The translations under genes and the position numbers were made by a program. From contig JBHLLO010000001.1 of NCBI GenBank assembly GCA_048885535.1, forward strand, positions 3,721 through 67,720: a stretch of 64,000 nt of DNA. The letters are read 5' to 3'. Below the pieces are notes generated by a model. It saw nothing but the letters and a program-made list of their open reading frames with translations. It had not been told where the DNA came from and did not search any database. Below, one piece after another: positions 5,046 through 64,000 of the stretch. Origin of the DNA: Candidatus Hermodarchaeota archaeon. GTDB lineage: Archaea; Asgardarchaeota; Lokiarchaeia; Sigyniarchaeales; SOKP01. Position 1 is the first letter of the stretch; the number at the start of each line of letters is the position of its first letter.

Positions 5046-5747
5046 TTAATCTTGATCTTCTTCCTCTATTTCTTCATCCTCTTGCGGTCTCTTAGGGCAT
5101 GAATTAAGGTGTCTTCCTAATCTAACAAATTCTTTACCACAATAAGGGCATATCTTCTTATCTTTTCCCTCATCTGCTTCAGACTTAGATTGTTTGGCTT
5201 TAAGTTTTTTTTTCTTCTTTTTGCGAGGTAGTATGTCGTCAATACTAACATCATCAGGGGCAAGTTCGCAAGATGGAATATGTGCTCTTAAATCATCAAA
5301 AATTTCCCCACAAAAAGGACATTCTAAATCACCAAATTCCTGAGAAACACTTACTTCATCTTTTCCAACTTTACGTTTTTCAAATTTTAAGGGTTCTTCC
5401 TCCTCTTCTTCCTCAAATTCATCACTAGTTAAATCAATTTCATCTTCTCCAGTTAGTTCTTTGTATTCAAAGTCTTCTAACTCAATCTTTTTTTCTAAAA
5501 TCTTTTTTTCTGCGATCTTTCTACTTTCTTCATAAATTTCTTGTGTCTTTCGGTTAGATTTAGCTGGTTCATAAATCTCACATACTTGGCACACATAAGC
5601 TCTTTTGCCAAGAACTAAATCTCTTGTTGGGCAAAAACACAAAGGTTGAAGGCTATTAGAAATATTACCTAATGGTTCTAAGTGTTTACAAACCAATTTT
5701 CTAGAATATTTAATTTTTTGCTTTCGACGTGGTATAATAATCACCAA
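5046..5747 (-). CDS. Acidic/lysine-rich zinc-finger protein: N-terminal Cys cluster plus two CCHC (UBZ4-like) fingers
   Basis: 233 aa with no internal Met, so the start must be TTG 5745-5747 or GTG 5742-5744. The two fingers are ECPFCGEIFDDLRAHIPSC (nt 5268-5321) and ICPYCGKEFVRLGRHLNSC (nt 5097-5150), both C-x2-C-x9-H-x3-C. Poly-E and poly-K linkers separate them. Confidence 0.55.
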   Translation of the reverse strand: MVIIIPRRKQKIKYSRKLVCKHLEPLGNISNSLQPLCFCPTRDLVLGKRAYVCQVCEIYEPAKSNRKTQEIYEESRKIAEKKILEKKIELEDFEYKELTGEDEIDLTSDEFEEEEEEEPLKFEKRKVGKDEVSVSQEFGDLECPFCGEIFDDLRAHIPSCELAPDDVSIDDILPRKKKKKKLKAKQSKSEADEGKDKKICPYCGKEFVRLGRHLNSCPKRPQEDEEIEEEDQD

Positions 5748-5824: not shown

Positions 5825-7417
5825 TTAATAATTATAATGTATAGAGTTAAGGTCATTTATTACTTTTTCTCTTATTTTACTATGTTCTATATGTGGTAAA
5901 AGCTCATCTACCAGATCTCGCAATTCAATTATCTTCTCAATAAGTAATTCACGTTTACTCCAGAGAGATTTTCTTAAAGGGTGGCTTTTAACTAATGCTC
6001 TATTATAATTTTCAATAGCTTCTTTATAGAAAAGACAAGCACTATCATAATTTTTTAGTCGTGTTTGGTATATTGTAGCAATCTTATTATAACTCATGCC
6101 AGCTCCAGCATAGTCTTTTTCTTTTTCAAAATATATAGCTGAATTTTCTATTTTTTTTAATGCATCTTTTAATATCTGCCTATCACCAGTTTTTAGGGAG
6201 ATATAGCCTATTATGTAATTTGCTACACCTAAATAGAATCGATAATCTTGTTGTTTAGAAAATTCATATAATTCATTTGCAAAACCTTCTGCTAAAACTA
6301 AATGATTATTTGACACACATAATTTAGCTACACTTCTTAGTAAATCCAAAACTCGTTCTATATTGCCCAGTTCTCTATACTTTTCAATGCCTTGTCGGTA
6401 TTTTTCTACTCCTGTAAATGTATCTTTACGTTGAAAGGCTTTATTGCCTTCATATATCAAAACTTCAGCATGTTCTTTTACTTTAGACGAGAGAGAATTA
6501 TCCTCTTCTTGGGTTGTGTCATAAAAAAGATTTTTGAAACCAAAAGACAAATCTTCATCAATGGGTATCTCAACTAAATCTTTTGGTTCTGTTCTGATAT
6601 CTATCTCGGAGATATAATTTGAATCTTGATTTTCAAAATTTTCAGAATCTTTATAGTTTGAATCTAATTTAAAATCCTCTTTATAAGCTGATTGTAACGG
6701 TTTGCCAGAAGAAACTAATGCCGATAATTCTGATAGAACATTTGCAAAGAAGTACTTGTTCAATCCTTTAACCATATAATCAACCTTATGAAAATTATTT
6801 TCAAATTCTGGAGCATTCGGATCCATATTTACATCTGTTAATCTATATATTTCAAACCCAGTATCATATTTGGTAAGAATGTTATCACCGATCTTTTCTT
6901 CCTTCTTTTTCCCTAATAATGTATGATCGAACACTAATCCAATAGCATCATTATATTTTGCTTGAAATCCTAGTTGATTTATTAAATCAACATAAGAAAA
7001 AAATAAAGACAAACCAGGATGAGAATGGAACCATCCTACAATAAAATGTGCCTGACCTTCACGATCTAATTGTTGTTGTATTTCATCAATGAAAATATAA
7101 TGTCTTTCATCCAAACTTACATCAGTATCGTGACCAAAAGTTAAAGCATAAGCATTTTCTACGTAAACAAAATCCTGATCAGAATAACCTGTTAAAATAC
7201 CATATATTTCTTTCCAATCTTTAGATGGTATTGCTTGATTTGAATACCTGCTTGCGTATAATATTATTGTTTTATAAGCTTCCGCTTTAATAATTACAGG
7301 TTTACCAACACTTTCTTTTTCTAATTCTCCGTCCCTTAAATCATTATCCAAATCATCCATTAAATCTTTAGGTGATTCTTGATTTTCTTTATTTTCCCTT
7401 TCAAACTCTTCTGACAT
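5825..7417 (-). CDS. MPN+/JAMM metalloprotease (Rpn11/CSN5/AMSH-like) fused to C-terminal TPR-like helical repeats
   Basis: 530 aa. Complete JAMM motif: upstream Glu in KEIYGILTG, then GWFHSHPGLSLFFSYVD (H-x-H-x7-S-x2-D) at nt 6986-7027. The C-terminal ~200 aa have a TPR/SNAP-like pattern (KDYAGAGMSYNKIATIYQTRLKNYDSACLFYKEAIENY). Confidence 0.85.
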   Translation of the reverse strand: MSEEFERENKENQESPKDLMDDLDNDLRDGELEKESVGKPVIIKAEAYKTIILYASRYSNQAIPSKDWKEIYGILTGYSDQDFVYVENAYALTFGHDTDVSLDERHYIFIDEIQQQLDREGQAHFIVGWFHSHPGLSLFFSYVDLINQLGFQAKYNDAIGLVFDHTLLGKKKEEKIGDNILTKYDTGFEIYRLTDVNMDPNAPEFENNFHKVDYMVKGLNKYFFANVLSELSALVSSGKPLQSAYKEDFKLDSNYKDSENFENQDSNYISEIDIRTEPKDLVEIPIDEDLSFGFKNLFYDTTQEEDNSLSSKVKEHAEVLIYEGNKAFQRKDTFTGVEKYRQGIEKYRELGNIERVLDLLRSVAKLCVSNNHLVLAEGFANELYEFSKQQDYRFYLGVANYIIGYISLKTGDRQILKDALKKIENSAIYFEKEKDYAGAGMSYNKIATIYQTRLKNYDSACLFYKEAIENYNRALVKSHPLRKSLWSKRELLIEKIIELRDLVDELLPHIEHSKIREKVINDLNSIHYNY

Positions 7418-8173: not shown

Positions 8174-8670
8174 GTACTATCACTCCATAAAGATTTTTGC
8201 AGAAGTACACTAACTGAACTACAATGATTTTGACTATAGGAAATTGCTTCGTTTAACTTATAGATTTCATTTCTAGATTTTATAGACCAAGTCTTCATTC
8301 CAATGACTTTAAGTAGGTTCTGAGTAATTTCTCCCATTGGTTTCTGCGCTAAGATTTCTTCGTCTTTACCACCTCTATGACTTATTATGAAAATTACTGG
8401 AATATCATATAATTCCAAAAGAGATTTGATAGCATTAACTGAATTTCCCAAACCTGAATTCTGCATTAATATTACTGGAAATTTTCCTCCCATGTAAGCA
8501 CCCGCCGCAATACCGACCCCCTCTTCTTCACGTGTCAAAGAAATATGCAATATTTCGTTTCTTTCATTTATCAAATTTAAGAGTCCCTTTAATAAAATAC
8601 AAGGTAATGATAAAATTAGATTTATTCCTGATTCTTTTATACAATTATATAATTCTAAATCAATTTTCAT
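8170..8670 (-). CDS. comD: TPP-dependent decarboxylase alpha subunit (ComD-like)
   Basis: 166 aa. REEEGVGIAAGAYMGGKFPVILMQNSGLGNSVNAI is typical of the sulfopyruvate decarboxylase alpha subunit (pyrimidine-binding half). Translationally coupled to the beta subunit. Confidence 0.7.
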   Translation of the reverse strand: MKIDLELYNCIKESGINLILSLPCILLKGLLNLINERNEILHISLTREEEGVGIAAGAYMGGKFPVILMQNSGLGNSVNAIKSLLELYDIPVIFIISHRGGKDEEILAQKPMGEITQNLLKVIGMKTWSIKSRNEIYKLNEAISYSQNHCSSVSVLLQKSLWSDST

Positions 8671-8767
8671 AAAGTTGAGGAATTTAGTTTCATTGAACTA
8701 TATTCATTAGTAAATAAACAACTAAAAATTTTAACATCTAAATTTTACAAGCACAAATAAGAACATA

Positions 8768-9604
8768 CTATACTTTCTTTTTTTTTTTTCGTGAGCCGCC
8801 TCCTATTCCAAGGTCTCCAAGGCTAACGTTAGTATCACCACAAATGATAGCTAATACGATAATAATAAGAATGACGACTACAATAACCACTGCGATTATT
8901 AGTGCTAATAATAATATACCTTCAACTTTATAAAGAATAAATATCCATGGTTTAGTTTCATTTTTTTGCACAGCTTTAGCTCCATAAAACATTATTACTA
9001 AAGAAGCAGTTAATAAATATGCTAGAGTAATCGGGATTGTTAATAAGAAATTCTGTATATCAAAAATAATTATAAATAATATTTCAAATACGGCAAGCCC
9101 TATAAGAAAGATAATTATATGTGCCCATAAATATCCCTTGGCAAAATATTTGTCTCTCAAACTATAGGCTACTAAAGATACTAAAATTGTAGCTCCAACT
9201 GTTAAAGTGAGGAACATATGAACTTGAAGTAAAAACCCTGTCAACATTATTATAGGAAGACTAATAATTCCTGCTATAAAACAAAATATAAAGAAAATAC
9301 TCAGCCCTAAATAAGTTTTGTTAGCTTTAGACACGAAATAAAACAATAAAAATAAAACCCCCTCAAGAATAATAGCAAAAATGTAAATAGTCAAAAATAT
9401 CACTGTAAATTCAAATTCTATAAAGACAAAGCTGAAGATTATTTCACCGGATAACCAAATAAGTGAACCTATTAATAAAATAGGTAATATTTTTAGCTGG
9501 AATATTTTACGTTGTGATAAAGTCAGAAGATATTTCGATTCTCTTTTAGAAATACTTTTATCTATCACCTGTAGATTGGAATCTTTTTCAGCTTCTTGCT
9601 CCAT
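8768..9604 (-). CDS. Seven-TM membrane protein with polybasic C-terminus (BI-1/YccA-like topology, tentative); possible N-terminal zinc-ribbon extension to 9700
   Basis: 278 aa with about 7 predicted hydrophobic helices, ending GGSRKKKKKV. In-frame sequence upstream of the ATG (9605-9700) encodes LECGEIPIKKLCTFCGTPLKKENRYCTNCGKP with no ATG/GTG/TTG. Confidence 0.5.
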   Translation of the reverse strand: MEQEAEKDSNLQVIDKSISKRESKYLLTLSQRKIFQLKILPILLIGSLIWLSGEIIFSFVFIEFEFTVIFLTIYIFAIILEGVLFLLFYFVSKANKTYLGLSIFFIFCFIAGIISLPIIMLTGFLLQVHMFLTLTVGATILVSLVAYSLRDKYFAKGYLWAHIIIFLIGLAVFEILFIIIFDIQNFLLTIPITLAYLLTASLVIMFYGAKAVQKNETKPWIFILYKVEGILLLALIIAVVIVVVILIIIVLAIICGDTNVSLGDLGIGGGSRKKKKKV

Positions 9605-9856
9605 AGGTTTACCGCAATTAGTACAATATCGATTTTCTTTTTTTAAAGGAGTACCACAAAATGTACATAATTTCTTAATAGGGATTTCACCACATTCTAG
9701 TCATTTAGTAAAAATTTACAAAATTATAAATTAAATATCAATAATCTTAATAAATATTTATAGATATTTCATCTTCTATACAAAATAACCTTTTAAAATT
9801 GATTTCTCTAAAAGATAGATTAAGATATAATCAACTTAATTTTTATTAATGGGTTT

Positions 9857-11074
9857 CTATATTACACCTGCTTTTTTAAACTTTTTAACATCTTCGTCAG
9901 TGTAATCTAAATTTTTTAATATTTCTATTGTATCCTGACCAATCTTAGGAGCTAGGCTTCTTATAGTTAATGGAGTCCTTGAGTATTTAATTGGGGATGC
10001 AACATTTTGAATTTTTCCAAATTTAGGATGATCAAGTTCAACTATCATTTTCCTTTCCTTTATTTGTGGATCATTACAAGCCTCATTGAAACTTTTTACT
10101 GGCATAACACAAGCGTCTCTATTAATAAAAATTTTCATCCACTCATCTTGAGTTTTTTTTAAAAACTCTTTTTGCATTTCTTGAAAAGTTTCTTCTTTTT
10201 CGTCATCTAAAGCATTACCTTTAGGAATTAAATCTTCTCTACCAATACCCTTACAGATCTCGCGCCAAAACTTAATTTCAATCGCTCCAATAGATAAATA
10301 TTTGTCATCTTTAGTTTTAAAAACTGTATAAAAAGGAAAATCCCCATGAAGTGGATTTTTAGGTTGAATATTACTATCATTTATATATTTTGAAAATTCG
10401 AAAGCTGCTGCCATTGGCATAAAAGAAAAAACACAATCCGTCATAGAAATATCAATATATTGTCCTTTTTTACCTTTATTTTTATCTCTCTCGATTATTG
10501 CTGCTAAAATACTAATTACTGACACTAATCCACCTCCAATATCTGCTGCTTGTATTCCTGGCACAATTGGTTTTCTTTCTTGATCGTTCTTGCCGAAAAA
10601 TTCACGCTCTTTATTTAGATCTAGAATTCCACATATTCCAATATAATTTAAGTCATGCCCAGCAATTTGTTCATATGGACCATATTGACCATATCCAGTT
10701 AGTGAACAATAAATGATAGATGGATTTATTTCAGATACGGTATCATAATCAATTTTTAAGTTTTTAGTCACCTTTGGACGAAATGTTTCTAAAATAATAT
10801 CTGCTTTCTGTACTAATTTATAAAAAATTTTTATAGCACCCTCCTTTTTTAGATTAAGCGAAATTGATTTCTTATTCCGCATTAAAATTGAATTAAAAGC
10901 ACTTTCTCTATAACGCCCTTTCTGAAAAAAGGGAGGGGGATTTCCATATGGAAATCTTGGATCATTGATATGAATAACTTGGGCCCCTAAATCTGCTAAT
11001 ATCATAGAACAGTAAGGTCCAGGAAGCAGACGACTCAAATCTAATACTAAAATATTCTCTAAAGGCAAAACCAT
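9857..11074 (-). CDS. CoA-transferase family III (CaiB/BaiF, alpha-methylacyl-CoA racemase-like)
   Basis: 405 aa. The N-terminus VLDLSRLLPGPYCSMILADLGAQVI is the family III CoA-transferase signature. Length is typical. Confidence 0.8.
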   Translation of the reverse strand: MVLPLENILVLDLSRLLPGPYCSMILADLGAQVIHINDPRFPYGNPPPFFQKGRYRESAFNSILMRNKKSISLNLKKEGAIKIFYKLVQKADIILETFRPKVTKNLKIDYDTVSEINPSIIYCSLTGYGQYGPYEQIAGHDLNYIGICGILDLNKEREFFGKNDQERKPIVPGIQAADIGGGLVSVISILAAIIERDKNKGKKGQYIDISMTDCVFSFMPMAAAFEFSKYINDSNIQPKNPLHGDFPFYTVFKTKDDKYLSIGAIEIKFWREICKGIGREDLIPKGNALDDEKEETFQEMQKEFLKKTQDEWMKIFINRDACVMPVKSFNEACNDPQIKERKMIVELDHPKFGKIQNVASPIKYSRTPLTIRSLAPKIGQDTIEILKNLDYTDEDVKKFKKAGVI

Positions 11075-11130
11075 AATAAAGATAAATGGAAAATTATTAA
11101 AAAAGCCTTTTTAAATTTTAAAAAATAAAA

Positions 11131-11643
11131 TTATAGATATATAATTTCAGTTTCTAATTTCTGTGTATCTATTAATGCAAAAGAGCCTTGTCCTGTTAAA
11201 TAACCACACAACTCTCCAGGATTGACTATTAAAACTTCATTACTATACTTCTCATTTACAATTGAATGAGTATGACCTGATAGTATAATATTAAAGTTTC
11301 CAGAACTAGCTAAAGCTTCGATAGTTTCTTTTTTTGGCATATGGGACGCAAAAATTTTTTTTCCATCAAAATCTTTAATTAGTTCATGTCCATTCTCAGC
11401 AAATTTGCATATATCACCAAGATTTTTTTTCAAAAATACATGATCACCGTCGTTATTTCCAAATACACCATAGAAATTTTCCTTTATTGGCTGATTTAAG
11501 TTATTGAACCATTTTCTTGTAAAAGGGGAGCAATAATCACCGCAATGAATTAATAAATCTGCTTTTCTTTCATTCATGATTGAAACTGCCTTTAAAATGT
11601 TATTTTGATGGTCATGGGTATCTGAAATTACTGCTAACTTCAA
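11131..11643 (-). CDS. Metallophosphoesterase, YfcE/MJ0936 family
   Basis: 170 aa with motifs ISDTHDH, HCGDY, GNNDGD and GHTH. Confidence 0.8.
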   Translation of the reverse strand: MKLAVISDTHDHQNNILKAVSIMNERKADLLIHCGDYCSPFTRKWFNNLNQPIKENFYGVFGNNDGDHVFLKKNLGDICKFAENGHELIKDFDGKKIFASHMPKKETIEALASSGNFNIILSGHTHSIVNEKYSNEVLIVNPGELCGYLTGQGSFALIDTQKLETEIIYL

Positions 11644-11781
11644 CTCAACAACACCTCAATTCGATTTATTTGAATTAATTATTTATTGTAATAAAAACCA
11701 TAAAAATATTGTTTAGGTAAAAAGTTATATTGTAAGGTTTAATATATTTATAGCATAAAACATGAAAAAGTTGTATGCTCA

Positions 11782-12858
11782 ATGATTGAAGAATTCCTTA
11801 ATAGAGAAAAATTAGCTATTGATGCTGAATTGGAGAAATACTTCAATGGTCTTAATGAAATGGAACAAGAAATTCTCCTAAAAGATTTTATTTCTCAATT
11901 AAAGGAATTTATATTTAATAAGAAAGCAAAAAGATTACATCCCATATTATTAATTGCTAGTTTTATAGGAATTATAAATCCTAATTATTTGAGTGAGCAG
12001 ATTGACCAAATTAGGTATGTTTCCTTAGCAATGGAATTATTACATAGCGGACATCTAATCCATGATGATCTTATAGATGAAGAGGAACTGAGGAGATCTA
12101 AACCAACTTTCCATATTCAACTGAAAAAAGAATTAGAAAGCGTATATAAAAATCTTGATTTTCCCCATAAGGATGATTTGATTAATATGTATGGAAGGGA
12201 TATGAGTATCTTAGGTGGAACTCATGGATATCTACTAGGACTTAATGTAATTAAAAATTCAAAATTTCCTAATAATTTAAAGCTATTTGCAATAAATGAA
12301 TATACTGAAGCAATGGATTTTTTAATTAAGGGGCATATAATTGAAGAATATATGCATTATCATAATTTAACAATGACATTAGAACAATATCTCAATATTG
12401 CTGAAATGCAAAGAGCAAGACTTTTTGAAAAGTCAGCTAAAATAGGAGCAATTCTAGCAAAGGGGAATTTGCATTATCAAATAAAGCCATTAAGTGAGGC
12501 TCTGTTGAGAATTGGACAAGCTTCTGCTATTAGGGATGATATTCTTGATGTGAAAAATGATATAAAGAGGAAAATAAAGAAGAATTTCGTTTACATTTTA
12601 GCAATTCAGAATTCAAATGAGGACCAATCAAAAAAGTTGAATGAGATTTATCACAAAGATAATTTAACAAATGATGATATAAAACATGTAGAAAACATTT
12701 TTGCTCAGACAAATTCTGTAATTACAGCAGAGCATTTTTCAAAAAACTTGGTTTCCCAAGCAAAAAATTACTTGAAAGACATTTATCCTGATTTAAATAA
12801 AGAACAGAAAGTTTTTTTTAATGAATTCTCTGATTACATATACATGAGAGAATTTTAG
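11782..12858 (+). CDS. Polyprenyl (geranylgeranyl-type) diphosphate synthase
   Basis: 358 aa. First Asp-rich motif LIHDDLIDEEELRRSKPT and second Asp-rich motif IRDDILD. Confidence 0.8.
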   Translation: MIEEFLNREKLAIDAELEKYFNGLNEMEQEILLKDFISQLKEFIFNKKAKRLHPILLIASFIGIINPNYLSEQIDQIRYVSLAMELLHSGHLIHDDLIDEEELRRSKPTFHIQLKKELESVYKNLDFPHKDDLINMYGRDMSILGGTHGYLLGLNVIKNSKFPNNLKLFAINEYTEAMDFLIKGHIIEEYMHYHNLTMTLEQYLNIAEMQRARLFEKSAKIGAILAKGNLHYQIKPLSEALLRIGQASAIRDDILDVKNDIKRKIKKNFVYILAIQNSNEDQSKKLNEIYHKDNLTNDDIKHVENIFAQTNSVITAEHFSKNLVSQAKNYLKDIYPDLNKEQKVFFNEFSDYIYMREF

Positions 12859-50523: not shown

Positions 50524-52191
50524 CTATTGCTTTAATTTCCCATATATATTTTTCTTTGCATTATATTCTTTTAGAACTTTTTTTCCTTCTTTATTGGTTA
50601 AGGATAATGAAATTTCACTATTACGGCTTAATGAACCCGTAAAAATTTGTTGATTATTAGCATAAACTATTATATTACTGCTTGCATATTCTTGATCTGC
50701 TCTTAATACTAATCTATTTCTTAGGATTTCTATGTCTAAGTCTATTTTGTCTTCAATTGTCTTTTTTCCTACAGTAAATTCCTCTAATCGCCTATATTTC
50801 TTAGATTTTATTGGGCTAATTGGATTTATAACTATATCTTGTCCAAAAGAATAAATTTCATATTCTAATTGTTTAGTCTTATAATCTCTTACTTCCACAA
50901 CAGGTCGAGCGAGATCCTTATCTCTAAAACCGTGTGGTACTTTTACGGTCATCTTTATGGCTAAAACCCTGGAGATATCTCCATCTTCAATAAATATTAT
51001 AGTATCTATTATTGAGGGAAGCATACCGAGCTCGATTCTACCAATAAACCTTTGAAGACCATCAATTGCAGAGGATGAGTGAACTACCCCAACCATTCCT
51101 ACTCCAGATAATCGAAAGTCGGCATAGACTTGAAAATCGTTGGTAGTTCTTACTTCATCAAATATAGTAAAATCAGGTCTTACTAAAAGGAGTATATCTG
51201 CTGAATTTTCAAGACTTCCTTCTAGCTTAGTGTATTGTGTAATTTCTGGGTCAACTTGCAAATCTCTTACACTCTCAAGTGTTTTTACTACTTTATTTTG
51301 CTGTAAATAGAAGTTTGCTAACGCTGCTGAAAAAGTACTCTTACCAGCACCGGGTGGTCCCGCAACTAAGATTCCCTCTGCTTTCTCCAAGCGACTACGC
51401 AATCTAGAGTCAATAGAATAATCTGACAATTTTAAATTAACAAGTGGACGTACAGCAGTTATTTCTAGATCATTTGAAAAAGGAGGGCGAGTAATTACAA
51501 TTCTAAATTCTCTTAATTGAGCTACAAGAGCACCAAACTTTTCAATTTCAATGAAAGAATGAGTATCCTCTCGAGTAAATTCTACAATCTCCATAGCTAT
51601 CTCTTCAAGCTGGTTTTTAGATATTGATTCCTCCATTACTTTCTCTAAATACCAGTTACCTGGACTGCCCTTCTTGGCATATGGTGGTAATTCTTGCTTC
51701 AAATGGATACTCATCGTATTTTTATCAAAAAATTTAATTAATGTAAGCGAGGAAGAATCAATTTTTTTTGGTGGTATTTTTTCTTTTACAGGTATTACTT
51801 CAATTCCTTCGAAAATTCCTACATCTCCCTGTATTTTATCTGAAGTGATTAAAACAGCTTTATTTTCACGAGCAGTTTCCCTAATTAAGGCATCTAATTC
51901 TCCTCCTGGAGCCATCTTAATTTCCTCACGAGTTGGCCTTTTTCCAATTATATGTAATTTAATTTTATTCTTATTATGATATTCTCTGAGTTTTTTTAAA
52001 ACATTTAAACCCAAAAAGCCAATTTCCTTTTGGATGTTTGTTCTATACTCTACTTCAGCCACAACAATATTCGGAATAAAAATTTCTGGATATTCACCTA
52101 ATTCTTCATCTTCAATCAAATCTAAAATAAGCCCGTTAAAAATAACTGAAGTATCACACACAAATTTATCTGGCATATTCTTCTTCATCAA
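50524..52191 (-). CDS. PIN-domain plus PilT-like P-loop ATPase (archaeal PINc-ATPase family)
   Basis: 555 aa. N-terminal PIN pattern FVCDTSVIFNG...LITSD, Walker A VAGPPGAGKST, Walker B-like TIFDEVR. The start may be the ATG at 52174-52176 (MPDKF). Confidence 0.7.
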   Translation of the reverse strand: MMKKNMPDKFVCDTSVIFNGLILDLIEDEELGEYPEIFIPNIVVAEVEYRTNIQKEIGFLGLNVLKKLREYHNKNKIKLHIIGKRPTREEIKMAPGGELDALIRETARENKAVLITSDKIQGDVGIFEGIEVIPVKEKIPPKKIDSSSLTLIKFFDKNTMSIHLKQELPPYAKKGSPGNWYLEKVMEESISKNQLEEIAMEIVEFTREDTHSFIEIEKFGALVAQLREFRIVITRPPFSNDLEITAVRPLVNLKLSDYSIDSRLRSRLEKAEGILVAGPPGAGKSTFSAALANFYLQQNKVVKTLESVRDLQVDPEITQYTKLEGSLENSADILLLVRPDFTIFDEVRTTNDFQVYADFRLSGVGMVGVVHSSSAIDGLQRFIGRIELGMLPSIIDTIIFIEDGDISRVLAIKMTVKVPHGFRDKDLARPVVEVRDYKTKQLEYEIYSFGQDIVINPISPIKSKKYRRLEEFTVGKKTIEDKIDLDIEILRNRLVLRADQEYASSNIIVYANNQQIFTGSLSRNSEISLSLTNKEGKKVLKEYNAKKNIYGKLKQ

Positions 52192-52783
52192 TATCTATTT
52201 TAGTTATTATTTCAAACTTATTTACACTATAATAAATTGGCTTACTTAACCGGTCTACAGTGGCAACTATTAATGCCTTTCGAGAGCTCATTGCCACGCG
52301 AGACATTTTATCTAAGTCTTTTAATTCGATCGGATATCCTTCAAATACGGGATATATTAAATATTTTGCTGCATCTGTGTTGATATCTGCTCCCCTTTTA
52401 TAAACTCGAAAATCAATTCCATCACCATATCCAGCTCTAACAATATAACCCCGTTTGCGCAAATCCATATAAATGATATACTTTTGCCACAATCTAGGGT
52501 CATACTGTGTGAATTCTATTAATAAATCTTCAAAACTATACATTTGGTTAGTTTTGTTATTGTCTTTCCATAACAATAACCTGTTTCGTTCACATAAAAG
52601 CAATACTTCAATAGGTTCTAAAATTAGTGATTGTTCACCAGTATCTTTCTCTTCTAAAGTTCCAATATAGGAATTATTATAAAATTCATCTATTGCTTTT
52701 TCATCAAAAATATATACTTTATCTTCCTTGATAATTGCTTCAAACTGAGCTTTCTCTACCTTTTCATCAGCTTTTTCTGTCAT
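52166..52783 (-). CDS. endA: tRNA-intron (splicing) endonuclease family protein, catalytic His apparently absent
   Basis: 205 aa. YMDLRKRGYIVRAGYGDGIDFRVYKRG and SRVAMSSRKALIVATVD match the EndA C-terminal catalytic domain. Tyr128 and Lys169 are present, but the position expected for His reads Ala (DAAKYLIY). Confidence 0.75.
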   Translation of the reverse strand: MTEKADEKVEKAQFEAIIKEDKVYIFDEKAIDEFYNNSYIGTLEEKDTGEQSLILEPIEVLLLCERNRLLLWKDNNKTNQMYSFEDLLIEFTQYDPRLWQKYIIYMDLRKRGYIVRAGYGDGIDFRVYKRGADINTDAAKYLIYPVFEGYPIELKDLDKMSRVAMSSRKALIVATVDRLSKPIYYSVNKFEIITKIDIDEEEYAR

Positions 52784-54505: not shown

Positions 54506-55726
54506 TTAGAATATCCAAATTAAGAGTAAAATTATGGATATAAGTCCTACCAAAAAGGTAATACATCCCCAGGAGGTTAAAGCATTTTTAATATAATTTA
54601 TTCTAAAGTCAACAGCCTCGTAAGGACATAACTCTACACAGCAATAGCACATTATACATTTCTCTTTAATCCATCTAGGTACATTTCCTTTCTTTAATTC
54701 TTCTGGTGGAATGATTGCCTTTCCAGGGCAATTACTCCAACAAGTTGAGCATAGTTTACAGTTTTCTTGTTTAAACCTAACTCTAGCTTTAAATATAGTT
54801 CTACCAACATAATCTGCAAGCCATCTGGGTAATGGCATTGAAATTGGTCGCTTAGTGGGACGTTTAAAATCTCTTCTTATAGTCTGAATATCTTCACCTA
54901 ATAATTCAGTCTTTGTTAAATTTGTTGTTCCTAAACCTTTCTGCTCTGCTTTGGTTAAATAGAAAACATCCTTGGGATCAAAACCAATTATTTTACATAC
55001 AGTTGTATCTAAAGCAACACCATCAAAACCAGCTAAAATCAAATCTAATTTCACGACATCTCCTTGGGAGGGTCCTTTACCTTCCTGACATAAATATCCA
55101 TCTATAACTGTTAATTGCGGATTCGAAACAGAATAAATATCTGCCAATGCTGAACTAAATCTATCTAATGTTGGAAATTGAGCATGGGTTTTAGCTTTAT
55201 TCCCTAGTAACATAGTGCCAAACATATTTTTAATACAGCAAGTAAGAAGACACTGCCAATGTGTCTTTATTTTTGGAATATTAATAATTAAATCTGCTTT
55301 TTTAATCAAATCTGAGCTTACAAATTCTTTTAATTCTAAAGGATTATTAACTTAATAATGTTCTCTCTCCGTTTTTTCAAAATGTATACATTCTACTCCC
55401 TCTTCTTGACAAACAGAGAGAATCCCGCTTTCTTTCATCGCTAATTCAGTAATTCCTGGTTTTTGGCCCCCTGCTGAATCACATACATATACTTCTAAAG
55501 GATTAAACGATTTTACCCACTGAATTACTGATCTTACTACTTCTGGATGAGTATTTACAGCTCTTTCCGTTGGCTTTCCTATAAGCAAGTTTGGTTTTAT
55601 TAAAATAACCATGTCCTTTTTTATCATTAATTCCTGAGCATTTATTAGTTTAAGGGCGTTAAAAACAGCAGTTTTTATATCATCATTGCTTATCTTCTGA
55701 ATAGCAATTTTAGTCCTACTAATCAT
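54506..55726 (-). pseudogene. DUF362 plus 2x[4Fe-4S] ferredoxin-domain gene interrupted by a single in-frame TAA (split gene or pseudogene)
   Basis: ORFs 55352..55726 (DUF362 N-terminal part, VILIKPNLL...HPEVV) and 54506..55309 (ADLIINIPKIKTH..., CKLCSTCWSNCP, CIMCYCCVELCP) are in the same frame (offset 846 = 3x282). They are separated only by TAA at 55352-55354 plus 14 sense codons (VNNPLELKEFVSSD). The second ORF has only a TTG start. Confidence 0.6.
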
Positions 55727-55857
55727 TTTTGTAACCCAATCCTACATAATAAATGAGCCTTTTATTAAATTTATGGACTGATATTTTAATTTTGAAAATA
55801 TTTCAATCGGATAATTTTAAAAAAAGAAAAAGTAAAAAATAAAAAAAGAAAATTTAT

Positions 55858-56112
55858 TTAAATGCCACCTGCTTGTGTAGCCATGACGGTTATAACATCC
55901 TTTTTTGGATGAATCCCTACTTTTGCGAATTTAAGATCATCTGGAAGTACTTTTCCTTTAAAAATGAACTGAATTGCTAAGATTGGGTTTAACTTATATT
56001 CTCTCTGAACTGTCTTTTTGATATCTGCGATAGACTGATTTGGATCAACTTCAATTAATTTTATAGCTTGATCTGGTGGCACCCCAGTAAGTCTAAATCT
56101 ATATTGAGTCAT
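55858..56112 (-). CDS. Ubiquitin-like beta-grasp protein with C-terminal GG followed by one residue (precursor-like)
   Basis: 84 aa. IEVDPNQSIADIKKTVQREYKLNPILAIQFIFKGKVLPDDLKFAKVGI...VITVMATQAGGI aligns by eye with ubiquitin ([47 protein letters not shown]...LHLVLRLRGG). Confidence 0.7.
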   Translation of the reverse strand: MTQYRFRLTGVPPDQAIKLIEVDPNQSIADIKKTVQREYKLNPILAIQFIFKGKVLPDDLKFAKVGIHPKKDVITVMATQAGGI

Positions 56113-56263
56113 TTTTTTTAACCTACTCTTTACTTTATATATATATTTATTAAATTGTAGATTAACTATAATAAAAGGTCAGCGGTATTGTTAACTTAAC
56201 TTTAGTCCATTTTTAATCTTTTTAACAGACAAAAATCAAATTTGTTTATTTAAGTAATCTTAT

Positions 56264-56461
56264 TTAGAACTTAAATGGTTCTGGAGGTGGACCTGGGGGG
56301 CTAGGTCGATCTGGTGGTGGGAATGGGCTAGGTTGAGGTGATGGTTGAATAGGTAACCGACTTAATCTATTTTCAATTAATGAAATACGATTTTCTAGCT
56401 CGTTTAGTCTTTTTTCAATTTTAACAATTCTTTCCAATAAATTTGGGTTTTCTCTCGACAT
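56264..56461 (-). CDS. Small coiled-coil protein with proline-rich C-terminus
   Basis: 65 aa. LLERIVKIEKRLNELENRISLIENRLSRL followed by PIQPSPQPSPFPPPDRPSPPGPPPEPFKF. This is a local GC-rich island caused by Pro codons. Confidence 0.5.
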   Translation of the reverse strand: MSRENPNLLERIVKIEKRLNELENRISLIENRLSRLPIQPSPQPSPFPPPDRPSPPGPPPEPFKF

Positions 56462-56629: not shown

Positions 56630-57730
56630 ATGGAAAGTTGGAACATCTCGAAAAAGTTAAAGAGTGAGTTACTTAAAAAATCCAGTAGTATTGAGGATAA
56701 TAGTAGGAGAATATTGTATATTCTTAGAAACTTAGGTCCACAAAGATTCACTAATATTATAAAATATTCAAATTTAAGTAGGTCAACAGTATCTAAGTAT
56801 CTTAATTATCATCGAAAGGAAAAAAATATTGAGCAAAGATTAATTACAGATAAAGATACCAATAAACAATATCAGGGTTATGTTATTACTGAAAAGGGCA
56901 TAGAAATTTTGGGAGAATTTCCTTTAAAGTTAAAAGATGAGTTATATGTTATTAATGAATTAAAAGAGAATGTCCGAAAGCTAGAAAGCTTAATCGACTT
57001 TTACAAAAAGATAAATCTTGAGGATCCCTTTATAATCCATATAGTACGTATCATCTCTAAAATTGGAGATAACTTCTTTAAATTACACCAAGATAGAGAT
57101 CTATATTTATCTCTTTTTTATATATTTTATAACTCAATTTTAGGACAAGGAGCCTTAGCACGAAAATATTGGCATTTTGAAGATTCTAGTTCTCAAAAAT
57201 TTGTTGGTTATAAATTGAATTTAGACCAATTTTGTGAATTATATCATGTTTCTAAAGAAGCGATAAGTTATTTAGCACGAATTAAACTAATTACTCCTGA
57301 TTTCGGATTTTATCTTATTAAACGTGAAGCGAATGATTTTTTTTTCCATGAGGAAGATTTGTTGGGCACTACTACAATTAGATTGATTAAAGATAGATTA
57401 ATAGATGAAATTATTAATCTTCAAGAGGGTATTTATGATATGATTTATGATCTAGATATCATAGCTGAAGATTTAACAAACCAGTTGAAAGAAATGGGCT
57501 TGATTTGGGATGCTATAAGAGAACATTTCCAAATGTTGGTTCTAAATCTTTTTATTAAGAATGCTATTGAAATGGGGTTCTTGGATATAGAACGCGATAA
57601 ATTAATGGAAGGAATTGCTCAATCAAAAAAATTTTCAATGTCAGAAGAAGGAAAAATACTTCAAAAGTCAATATTAAAAGGCTTGAAATTGGAAGTAAAT
57701 CTGAATATCCTTACACTAATCATGGATTGA
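56630..57730 (+). CDS. Hypothetical protein with N-terminal MarR/ArsR-like winged helix-turn-helix
   Basis: 366 aa. RRILYILRNLGPQRFTNIIKYSNLSRSTVSKYLNYH...YQGYVITEKGIEIL. The C-terminal ~260 aa are helical and unassigned. Confidence 0.5.
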   Translation: MESWNISKKLKSELLKKSSSIEDNSRRILYILRNLGPQRFTNIIKYSNLSRSTVSKYLNYHRKEKNIEQRLITDKDTNKQYQGYVITEKGIEILGEFPLKLKDELYVINELKENVRKLESLIDFYKKINLEDPFIIHIVRIISKIGDNFFKLHQDRDLYLSLFYIFYNSILGQGALARKYWHFEDSSSQKFVGYKLNLDQFCELYHVSKEAISYLARIKLITPDFGFYLIKREANDFFFHEEDLLGTTTIRLIKDRLIDEIINLQEGIYDMIYDLDIIAEDLTNQLKEMGLIWDAIREHFQMLVLNLFIKNAIEMGFLDIERDKLMEGIAQSKKFSMSEEGKILQKSILKGLKLEVNLNILTLIMD

Positions 57731-63270: not shown

Positions 63271-64000
63271 TCATTGGTTCGAGCAAAGGCATTGTTCACT
63301 TTTAACAAGATCTATTTTATCAAACGTAAGATTAATTAGATTAACCATAAGTAACTTGTTTTCTAAATTGGGAAGTCCTAATGTTGTTTTGATAACCTCA
63401 AGAGCTTCTAAAGTACCTAAAACACCCGGGGTTACTCCAATTACTGGTAAAGGGTCTGATTCTTGAGGTAATATTTCTGGTTCACTGAAAACGCATTGGT
63501 AGCATGCTGTTCTTTTTGGATTGATTGTCATTATTTGACCATAGAAATCTTTAATTCCAGCTATTACACATTTTAAGTTTGCTTCAATCGCGATTTTATT
63601 TACTAAAAATTTAGTTTTAAAATTATCACTACAATCTACAATAAAATCTTTATTATCAATATATTTTTTAATTGTTTTTTCCTCTACATAATCTTTATTT
63701 ACAATAATTTTTACCTCAGAATTAAAATTCAATAGGACTTTTTCAGCAGCATCAACCTTATCCTTGCCAATTTGAGTCTCATTATAGAGAATCTGACGTT
63801 GTAAATTCGAAATTGAAACGATATCATTATCTATTATTGTAAGTTCTCCTATACCTGCTGCAACTAAGTAATAAGCAAATGGTGATCCCAAACCTCCAGC
63901 CCCAATTTGGAGTACTCTAATCTTTGATAATTTTTCTTGACCTTCTTCACCAATAGAAGGAGACAAAATTTGTCTTGAATATCTTTCTTTTTGCTTCTTA
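63271..64000 (-). CDS. MoeB/ThiF/UbaA-type E1-like adenylyltransferase; N-terminus runs off the window end
   Basis: The ORF track starts it at TTG 63964-63966, but the frame stays open to the window edge and reads KKQKERYSRQILSPSIGEEGQEKL (the RYSRQI hallmark). Also VLQIGAGGLGSPFAYYLVAAGIGELTIIDNDIVSISNLQRQILY, and zinc CxxC pairs CYQC and CLC. Confidence 0.85.
   Translation of the reverse strand, partial: KKQKERYSRQILSPSIGEEGQEKLSKIRVLQIGAGGLGSPFAYYLVAAGIGELTIIDNDIVSISNLQRQILYNETQIGKDKVDAAEKVLLNFNSEVKIIVNKDYVEEKTIKKYIDNKDFIVDCSDNFKTKFLVNKIAIEANLKCVIAGIKDFYGQIMTINPKRTACYQCVFSEPEILPQESDPLPVIGVTPGVLGTLEALEVIKTTLGLPNLENKLLMVNLINLTFDKIDLVKSEQCLCSNQ

Follow-up and report, generated by a model that had tools for sequence, protein, structure and literature searches.

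Analysis of a 64,000-nucleotide stretch of DNA from a Candidatus Hermodarchaeota archaeon, referred to here at its full length as the window, led to a ubiquitin gene at position 55858..56112 on the minus strand. Judged by its sequence, this gene is the already described ubiquitin of the Lokiarchaeia, an orthologue of Lokiarch_37670, and represents a rediscovery. Sequence comparison supports its product as a precursor with one extra, non-conserved residue (Ile84) past the Gly-Gly, which is predicted to be trimmed. By analogy with archaeal systems already reconstituted, we hold with good confidence that the protein would be trimmed by a JAMM protease and then conjugated through an activating enzyme (E1), a conjugating enzyme (E2) and a ligase (E3), the E1, E2 and E3 genes lying outside the window.

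The ubiquitin gene, its product and its predicted fold

The gene comprises 84 codons from an ATG start to a TAA stop and encodes MTQYRFRLTGVPPDQAIKLIEVDPNQSIADIKKTVQREYKLNPILAIQFIFKGKVLPDDLKFAKVGIHPKKDVITVMATQAGGI, which begins with MTQYRF and ends with VMATQAGGI. An initial annotation, made from the letters alone, had placed an 84-aa open reading frame (ORF) here and had pointed to its QFIFKGKVL segment and its ATQAGG-I end; the coordinates are exact and both segments were borne out. The codons of G82 and G83 (55864..55869, minus strand) would form the mature C-terminus of a protein of residues 1-83, and codon 84 (Ile, 55861..55863, minus strand) encodes the residue predicted to be removed. 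The resemblance to ubiquitin, seen at first by eye, lies far beyond chance: the protein matches the Pfam family PF00240 with 39.5 bits (E-value = 4.7e-10, profile positions 11-71 of 72) at a curated cut-off of 25.4 bits, HMMER aligns its residues 20-74 in register with ubiquitin 15-68, and 189 homologues were retrieved at E ≤ 1e-3, nearly all of them from Lokiarchaeia/Promethearchaeota. Searching 1.8 billion representative proteins with a profile built from 47 orthologues yielded 296 proteins, including multi-repeat ones patterned like eukaryotic polyubiquitins. According to the in-register and family alignments, L8, K27, I44, G47 and K48 of ubiquitin correspond to L8, K32, I50, G53 and K54 of the window protein, all of which are invariant across the family alignment together with G82 and G83. 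The local match that BLASTP finds in human ubiquitin is off-register (GVPPDQ with GIPPDQ) and was not used, the HMMER and Foldseek alignments being in register. BLASTP is misled by an extra loop, GVPPDQAIKLI (residues 10-20, window 56083..56053), which resembles ubiquitin residues 35-45 and is structurally elsewhere; this likeness is probably a coincidence.

Lokiarch_37670 is the "Ub" of Lokiarchaeum sp. GC14_75 in Supplementary Data 1 of Hatano et al. (2022; PMC9192718) and aligns with the window protein without gaps at 79 of 84 identical residues (94%). The five substitutions are conservative (V22L, Q26N, S27A, D59Q and V65I), and in both proteins VMATQAGG is followed by a tail starting with Ile, namely ISIIH in Lokiarch_37670 and I in the window. 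In yeast two-hybrid assays, the Lokiarchaeal ubiquitin has been reported to bind the Vps23 UEV domain, and the ubiquitin-system and ESCRT genes of Lokiarchaea are reported to form two separate genomic regions (PMC9192718).

Concerning the fold, an AlphaFold run on the alignment of 47 sequences gave a model with a predicted local distance difference test (pLDDT) of 91.5 and a predicted template modelling score (pTM) of 0.80, the single-sequence model being unusable (pLDDT 56.6). The order of the elements is strand-strand-helix-strand-strand-strand, plus an extra short helix within the first loop. Specifically, DSSP assigned strands to residues 2-8, 17-22, 46-51 and 73-79, a two-residue strand to 54-55 and a helix to 28-38, and residues 82-84 form a disordered tail. 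The model has the make-up of a beta-grasp protein, a five-stranded mixed sheet on one helix with a flexible C-terminal tail. Foldseek superposed it on 1ubq with template modelling (TM) scores of 0.76/0.83 and a root-mean-square deviation of 2.1, and its top 50 matches in the PDB comprise ubiquitin, NEDD8, SUMO and the Caldiarchaeum ubiquitin 6fnn_C (TM 0.75), with no Urm1, SAMP or MoaD among them. Additionally, a Pfam scan of the protein at E ≤ 10 returned ubiquitin-type families only (ubiquitin, Rad60-SLD and TUG-UBL1) and no ThiS, MoaD or Urm1. The structure comparison that the initial annotation had recommended thus came out in favour of its ubiquitin-like claim and, as modelled, the protein is a ubiquitin-family beta-grasp protein nearer to ubiquitin than to the sulfur carriers. 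Both the scan and the fold matches count against a SAMP/Urm1-like role, in which a ThiF/MoeB/UbaA-type enzyme of the window would activate the protein and no E2 or E3 would be involved, the product serving as modifier, sulfur carrier or both; the union of a beta-grasp with a terminal Gly-Gly speaks for such a role.

The C-terminal end was surveyed in 120 homologues, among which VMATQAGG is nearly invariant; in the 47 aligned orthologues G82 and G83 are invariant (47/47) and VMATQ is at least 90% conserved. The Gly-Gly is followed by nothing in 26 of the 120 homologues, by one residue in 54 (nine kinds in all) and by longer, unrelated tails in 34, and it is missing in six through truncation or interruptions. 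Because conservation stops exactly at the Gly-Gly, and what follows is absent, single and variable or unrelated, the window protein reads as a precursor, as the initial annotation had proposed; its orthologues do keep the Gly-Gly, and the tails are dispensable. With its conserved C-terminal Gly-Gly, exposed directly or by trimming, the protein has the defining feature of a type 1 ubiquitin-like protein (UBL). An invariant, exposed and disordered Gly-Gly with freely varying tails is predicted by a processed and conjugated modifier and would be unneeded for binding alone, which argues against a UBL that is never attached and binds its partners, e.g., UEV domains or proteasome receptors, in a solely non-covalent manner. 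The published interaction is non-covalent only, a yeast two-hybrid result with the UEV domain (PMC9192718), which speaks for such a UBL; we nevertheless regard a non-conjugated UBL as very improbable. The last lysine of the protein is K71, and the predicted trypsin remnant on a modified lysine is DVITVMATQAGG and not diGly. Trypsin-based diGly proteomics would therefore be blind to this modifier, and the search for a Gly-Gly remnant by mass spectrometry, suggested with the initial annotation, would fail with this protease.

The same ubiquitin domain, often with GG or near-GG after it, was also observed fused to large uncharacterised regions (P0129, P0133, P0136, P0137, P0152, P0156, P0160, P0169, P0174, P0189, P0205, P0215 and P0225). 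It is N-terminal in some proteins of 370-880 aa and embedded in others of 800-2200 aa. Several of these fusions have a C-terminal YEYLVIGLD block in common and two are Cys-rich; no Pfam match was obtained for the partner regions in the 10 proteins scanned.

Enzymes encoded in the window and in the lineage

Two enzymes had been listed initially as encoded in the window. The first, a JAMM protease at 5825..7417 (minus strand), is present as listed: it is a 530-aa Rpn11-type JAMM/MPN+ metalloprotease with a C-terminal TPR-like domain (JAMM-TPR), its JAMM domain being located at about residues 39-170. It matches PF01398 (JAB) with 52.3 bits, its active-site motif (HSHPx7SxxD / HxHx7Sx2D, GWFHSHPGLSLFFSYVD) is intact, and its nearest solved relatives are yeast Rpn11 (E-value = 6e-11) and the Rpn11-like protease of Caldiarchaeum (6fjv, E-value = 1e-10). 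On these sequence features JAMM-TPR is a candidate for precursor trimming or deconjugation; its gene is 48 kb from the ubiquitin gene and unlinked to it. The gene just downstream, at 5046..5747 (minus strand), encodes a protein of 233 aa that is acidic, rich in lysine and equipped with several CxxC zinc-ribbon or C2H2-like motifs; every Pfam match of this protein falls below its cut-off, and it may be a partner of the protease.

The second enzyme had been described as E1-like and is a 248-aa ThiF/MoeB/Uba4-type adenylyltransferase, located at 63271..64000 and beyond (minus strand), with its first six codons past the end of the window and its start 17 nt outside. It matches PF00899 with 215.7 bits. 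Concerning the NCBIfam models, it scores 245 bits with MoeB, 200 with ThiF and 191 with UbaA, all three below the equivalog cut-offs, and only 52 with Ube1. The nearest solved relatives are E. coli ThiF, MoeB and Uba4, and the identity with the ubiquitin-type E1 of the lineage, described below, is 32%; a ThiF-family gene is present, but the E1-like label needs to be corrected in this sense. The gene overlaps a Roadblock/LC7 gene by 8 nt and comes after genes for LSm and ribosomal protein L37e on the same strand (L001:1105-2842), an unusual setting for a sulfur-carrier-activating enzyme. No other credible small ORF ending in GG, which could serve as its SAMP/MoaD partner, was detected across the window. 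The ubiquitin gene lies about 7 kb away and is not adjacent, and this linkage is not kept in L. ossiferum. From these comparisons, the enzyme is most likely not the activating enzyme of the window ubiquitin.

SAMPs in Haloferax and Urm1 in eukaryotes act as protein modifiers and/or sulfur carriers. That the window ubiquitin acts likewise is unlikely in our judgement: its orthologue binds a UEV domain (PMC9192718), the lineage owns a dedicated E1 and E2 of eukaryotic type, and the ThiF gene sits within the LSm-L37e-Roadblock string, apart from a ubiquitin gene whose neighbours differ in L. ossiferum. Its support, apart from the terminal Gly-Gly, comes from the presence of that gene at 7 kb, with its score to the UbaA model, and from the lack of E2 and RING genes in the window. 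The latter had been stated in the initial annotation and holds, as no UQ_con or RING domain was matched among window ORFs of at least 100 aa, and tblastn with the E2, the RING-like protein and the operon UBLs of the lineage found nothing in the window.

The conjugation enzymes of the lineage are encoded elsewhere. With the E2-like sequence of Lokiarchaeum, as given in the PMC9192718 source data, as a query and one genome per species, we found the E2 in 80 Promethearchaeota genomes, with an identity of 81-92% in 79 of them and 77% in one. A conserved operon surrounds it there (loci L008-L087, which span at most 10 kb on each side of the E2 gene, as far as the contig permits). It contains one or two UBL genes plus a third, divergently transcribed one; an E1 of 411-419 aa, whose nearest solved relatives are the NEDD8 E1 subunit UBA3, the SUMO E1 subunit SAE2 and UBA1; a 175-aa UBC E2 (PF00179, 90.7 bits); an Rpn11-type JAMM protease of 267-277 aa with an intact active-site motif, to which JAMM-TPR is 31% identical; and a membrane protein of about 375-390 aa with a C-terminal Cys/His-rich RING-like finger, a RING call made by eye only. 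In locus L033, for example, these four genes are at 8659-9918 (E1), 9998-10525 (E2), 10519-11343 (JAMM) and 11372-12538 (RING-like protein). The operon UBLs (e.g., L033:5959-6408 and L033:8246-8578) carry a conserved LLIPAS[T/I/V]AG, with Ala-Gly and not Gly-Gly, followed by nothing or by a short variable tail, and two of them have acidic or low-complexity N-terminal extensions. The third UBL, on the opposite strand (L033:6440-6700, minus strand), ends with ALIPSRKEKN and has no terminal glycine. An operon UBL shares 19% identity with the window ubiquitin and ends one Gly earlier. Both gene types occur together in the metagenome-assembled genome (MAG) JBHLON, which has an identical ubiquitin protein in the same synteny (L002) as well as the operon (L069, JBHLON010000076.1).

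Because this operon of the lineage has a UBA3-like E1, a UBC E2, a JAMM protease and a RING-like protein, we favour an E1-E2-E3 route over a SAMP/Urm1-like one; the route, left open in the initial annotation, appears less so given the operon, the ubiquitin fold and the publication of the orthologue as ubiquitin. The steps can be drawn by analogy with the Caldiarchaeum and Helarchaeial systems, which have been reconstituted in vitro. An Rpn11-type JAMM, either the one of the operon or JAMM-TPR being a candidate, would remove Ile84 and expose Gly83, which the UBA3-like E1 of about 415 aa would adenylate and then bind as a thioester. The 175-aa UBC E2 would receive ubiquitin from the E1, the RING-like E3 would aid its attachment to target lysines, and readers such as the UEV domain of Vps23 (ESCRT-I) would recognise the attached ubiquitin.

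Several observations weigh against this proposal. The ubiquitin gene stands alone, with no linked conjugation enzyme, in the window as well as in its relatives and in L. ossiferum. The operon with its UBC and RING-like genes was found in the 80 related species genomes and not in the assembly matching the window (GCA_048886785.1, contig JBHLKJ010000001.1, read in reverse), for which the E2-homologue search found no operon, the two NCBI-derived matches belonging to other assemblies. The ATQAGG tail lacks counterparts of Arg72 and Arg74 of eukaryotic ubiquitin. Finally, the operon has its own UBLs as more obvious substrates of its enzymes, and the window-type ubiquitin is absent from 80 of 80 operon loci.

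The last two points also speak for a separate modifier system, in which the GG-ubiquitin and the AG-ending UBLs would be distinct, with at least partly different enzymes, and the operon enzymes would not act on the window protein. The low identity and the different ends of the two UBL types agree with it, as does the second, paralogous Rpn11-like JAMM with a TPR domain that the window encodes. However, a second E1/E2 pair did not turn up in our analysis, and the single UBC E2 is as strongly conserved as the window ubiquitin, which fits joint action; moreover, one eukaryotic E1 can serve several related UBLs. We consider this arrangement improbable, slightly more so than a SAMP/Urm1-like role. 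Overall, we rated the E1-E2-E3 route as the most likely one for the window protein, with a partly separate system as its chief alternative; SAMP/Urm1-like use was rated as unlikely. More broadly, we tentatively suggest, as a possibility well short of an even chance, that Lokiarchaeia run at least two distinct ubiquitin-like modifiers, a solitary GG-ubiquitin and the AG-ending operon UBLs, perhaps with separate maturation or conjugation; for example, JAMM-TPR may serve the former and the operon JAMM the latter. If this is true, a split of the kind seen between ubiquitin and NEDD8/SUMO arose in archaea before eukaryotes.

Selection, candidate introns and flanking genes

The ubiquitin gene is under extreme purifying selection. 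Compared with the related MAG (L002, contig JBHLON010000030.1), 26 of 26 nucleotide differences are synonymous (synonymous divergence dS about 0.75, non-synonymous divergence dN 0), and the flanking locus has a DNA identity of 79-82%. A putative archaeal promoter and a putative ribosome-binding site can be discerned in the 43 nt upstream of the start codon (56113..56155, minus strand): the TATA-like A/T-rich element AATAAATATATATATAAAG lies about 21-40 nt ahead of the ATG, and an AGGT, the putative ribosome-binding site, about 9-12 nt ahead of it. Directly past the stop codon, at 55819..55857 (minus strand), four oligo-T runs (T7, T6, T5 and T7 on the coding strand) form a putative archaeal oligo-T terminator, and T-runs past the stop are also present in the orthologous loci; if the terminator is real, the ubiquitin gene would be monocistronic.

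Some orthologues bear a hypervariable insert of 10 residues midway along the last strand, which in the DNA corresponds to an insert of 30-31 nt at a fixed site between GAYGTNATAA and CCGTNATGG, i.e., I74|T75, equivalent to 55884/55885 in the window. Genes with this insert are those of L090:3001-3285, L093:1501-1785, L095:1501-1790, L099, L104, L107, L110, L111, L114, L120, L122 and L123. A pattern scan of metagenome contigs gave 12 insert loci and, with those seen earlier, 12 distinct variants. An in-frame TAG is present in four of the variants and another length, 31 nt, in one, yet removal of the insert leaves the TVMATQAGG frame intact. Every I74|T75 variant fits the archaeal bulge-helix-bulge motif in a fixed register: the two exons pair with each other in an outer helix, the end of exon 1 pairs with the intron over 4 bp, this central helix is flanked on each side by a bulge of 3 nt, and a hairpin forms the inner part. 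In an ungapped alignment of 10 sequences, 88.8% of the cells pair, compared with 77.4% in shuffles (0/500 reached the observed value). Nine pairs changed on both sides, and registers slid by 1-3 columns pair at 35-54%. Covariation was also seen between the wobble position of the exon 1 Val codon and the intron base with which it pairs (C:G and U:A, with A:U in the variant of 31 nt). When the regions with introns were folded by minimum free energy, no bulge-helix-bulge emerged and the z-scores were unremarkable, the motif being visible only through fixed-register pairing and covariation.

Two ubiquitin genes, L099 (SDBU01060717.1) and L111 (SDBS01002127.1), carry three inserts each: a canonical one of 31 nt at D14|Q15, one of 30 nt at I74|T75, and one of 30 or 32 nt with a looser motif at Q80|A81. 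With all three removed, their ORFs end with VMATQAGG and a stop directly after. The divergence of P0008 and P0014 past VMATQ is probably read-through of the third insert. The window gene has none of the three. Translational bypassing and a translated loop were weighed as alternatives, and the canonical motif, the in-frame TAG codons and the lengths of 31-32 nt make both less likely; we regard the inserts as candidate bulge-helix-bulge mini-introns. Our full-text literature search found no such introns in protein-coding genes of Asgard archaea; tRNA introns in Asgard archaea and an intron in the crenarchaeal cbf5 mRNA are reported. If the inserts are spliced, archaeal mRNA splicing would extend from crenarchaeal cbf5 to Asgard archaea. 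A tRNA-splicing endonuclease with tRNA_int_endo domains (205 aa), a member of the enzyme family that cuts bulge-helix-bulge introns, is encoded at 52166..52783 (minus strand), 3 kb from the ubiquitin gene, a closeness that is probably coincidental.

Concerning the neighbouring genes, a DUF362/4Fe-4S gene is located directly downstream of the ubiquitin gene at 54506..55726 (minus strand). A single in-frame stop (TAA, 55352..55354) splits it; the related MAG, otherwise 82% identical over 395 residues, has GAA (Glu) there. The sequence indicates a nonsense mutation or a consensus error; an intron or a selenocysteine or otherwise recoded codon was rejected, as GAA has simply changed to TAA. In loci L001-L004, which come from close relatives, the ubiquitin gene is directly preceded by one for a 65-aa coiled-coil and proline-rich protein (56264..56461, minus strand), adjoined by a divergent gene for a winged-helix protein (56630..57730, plus strand), and a leucine-rich-repeat protein is also encoded upstream. 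In the more distant L095, a short 62-aa ORF similar by position and size precedes the ubiquitin gene. The winged-helix position is taken in L095 by a 454-aa protein with a weak HxlR match and in L090 by an unannotated 454-aa protein; L090 also has the leucine-rich-repeat protein, and the L095 locus is too short to show it. The ubiquitin gene of L. ossiferum has unrelated neighbours, with no coiled-coil, winged-helix or leucine-rich-repeat gene. The window as a whole has a G+C content of about 29%, carries typical Asgard genes (actin, a small Arf/Ras-type GTPase, a Roadblock protein and a leucine-rich-repeat protein) and contains no tRNA according to ARAGORN.

Comparison with known ubiquitin systems

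Ubiquitin systems of Asgard archaea bear on the origin of eukaryotic protein tagging, ESCRT sorting and proteasomal targeting. The window gene does not enlarge the known set of component types, since its orthologue has already been named and used experimentally. What is added here is that the true ubiquitin-type E1, in the operon elsewhere, is told apart from the sulfur-carrier ThiF of the window, and that the Lokiarchaeal ubiquitin of the literature is not the UBL beside the E1 and E2, so that the operon enzymes may serve either modifier. The operon UBLs and the candidate introns are leads worth following.

With SAMP1-3, Urm1, MoaD and ThiS, the window protein has in common a small beta-grasp with a C-terminal Gly-Gly and a ThiF/MoeB-type enzyme encoded nearby; it differs in the family and fold matches given above and in the non-adjacent position of the ThiF gene. 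Closer at hand is the Helarchaeial system, in which a pro-ubiquitin with a four-residue tail (SPKN) is conjugated to Vps23 in vitro by E1, E2 and RING E3 once the tail is removed (bioRxiv 10.1101/2023.07.25.550441). Both are Asgard pro-ubiquitins with a short tail past the Gly-Gly, but the Helarchaeial gene sits in an ESCRT/ubiquitin cluster, and the two are likened by description, which does not imply orthology to the solitary gene. The system of Caldiarchaeum subterraneum consists of ubiquitin, E1, E2, a small RING E3 and an Rpn11-type JAMM (PMC5654768, PMC6043591; PDB 6fnn), and its CsRpn11 processes the ubiquitin precursor (PMC6043591). The window protein resembles it in the residues past the Gly-Gly, in the availability of an Rpn11-like JAMM and in its fold. 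In Caldiarchaeum, however, all these genes lie in one operon, whereas the window gene is solitary and the operon of its lineage carries other UBLs, and the identity is only about 20%. Finally, eukaryotic ubiquitin (PF00240; 1ubq) is about 22% identical, and differs in that the window protein has five extra residues (VPPDQ) with a short helix in the loop between strands 1 and 2, ends with ATQAGG where ubiquitin has LRLRGG, and is encoded by a single gene, neither a polyubiquitin nor a ribosomal-protein fusion. The beta-grasp, the counterparts of L8, K27, I44, G47 and K48 and the terminal GG are common to both.

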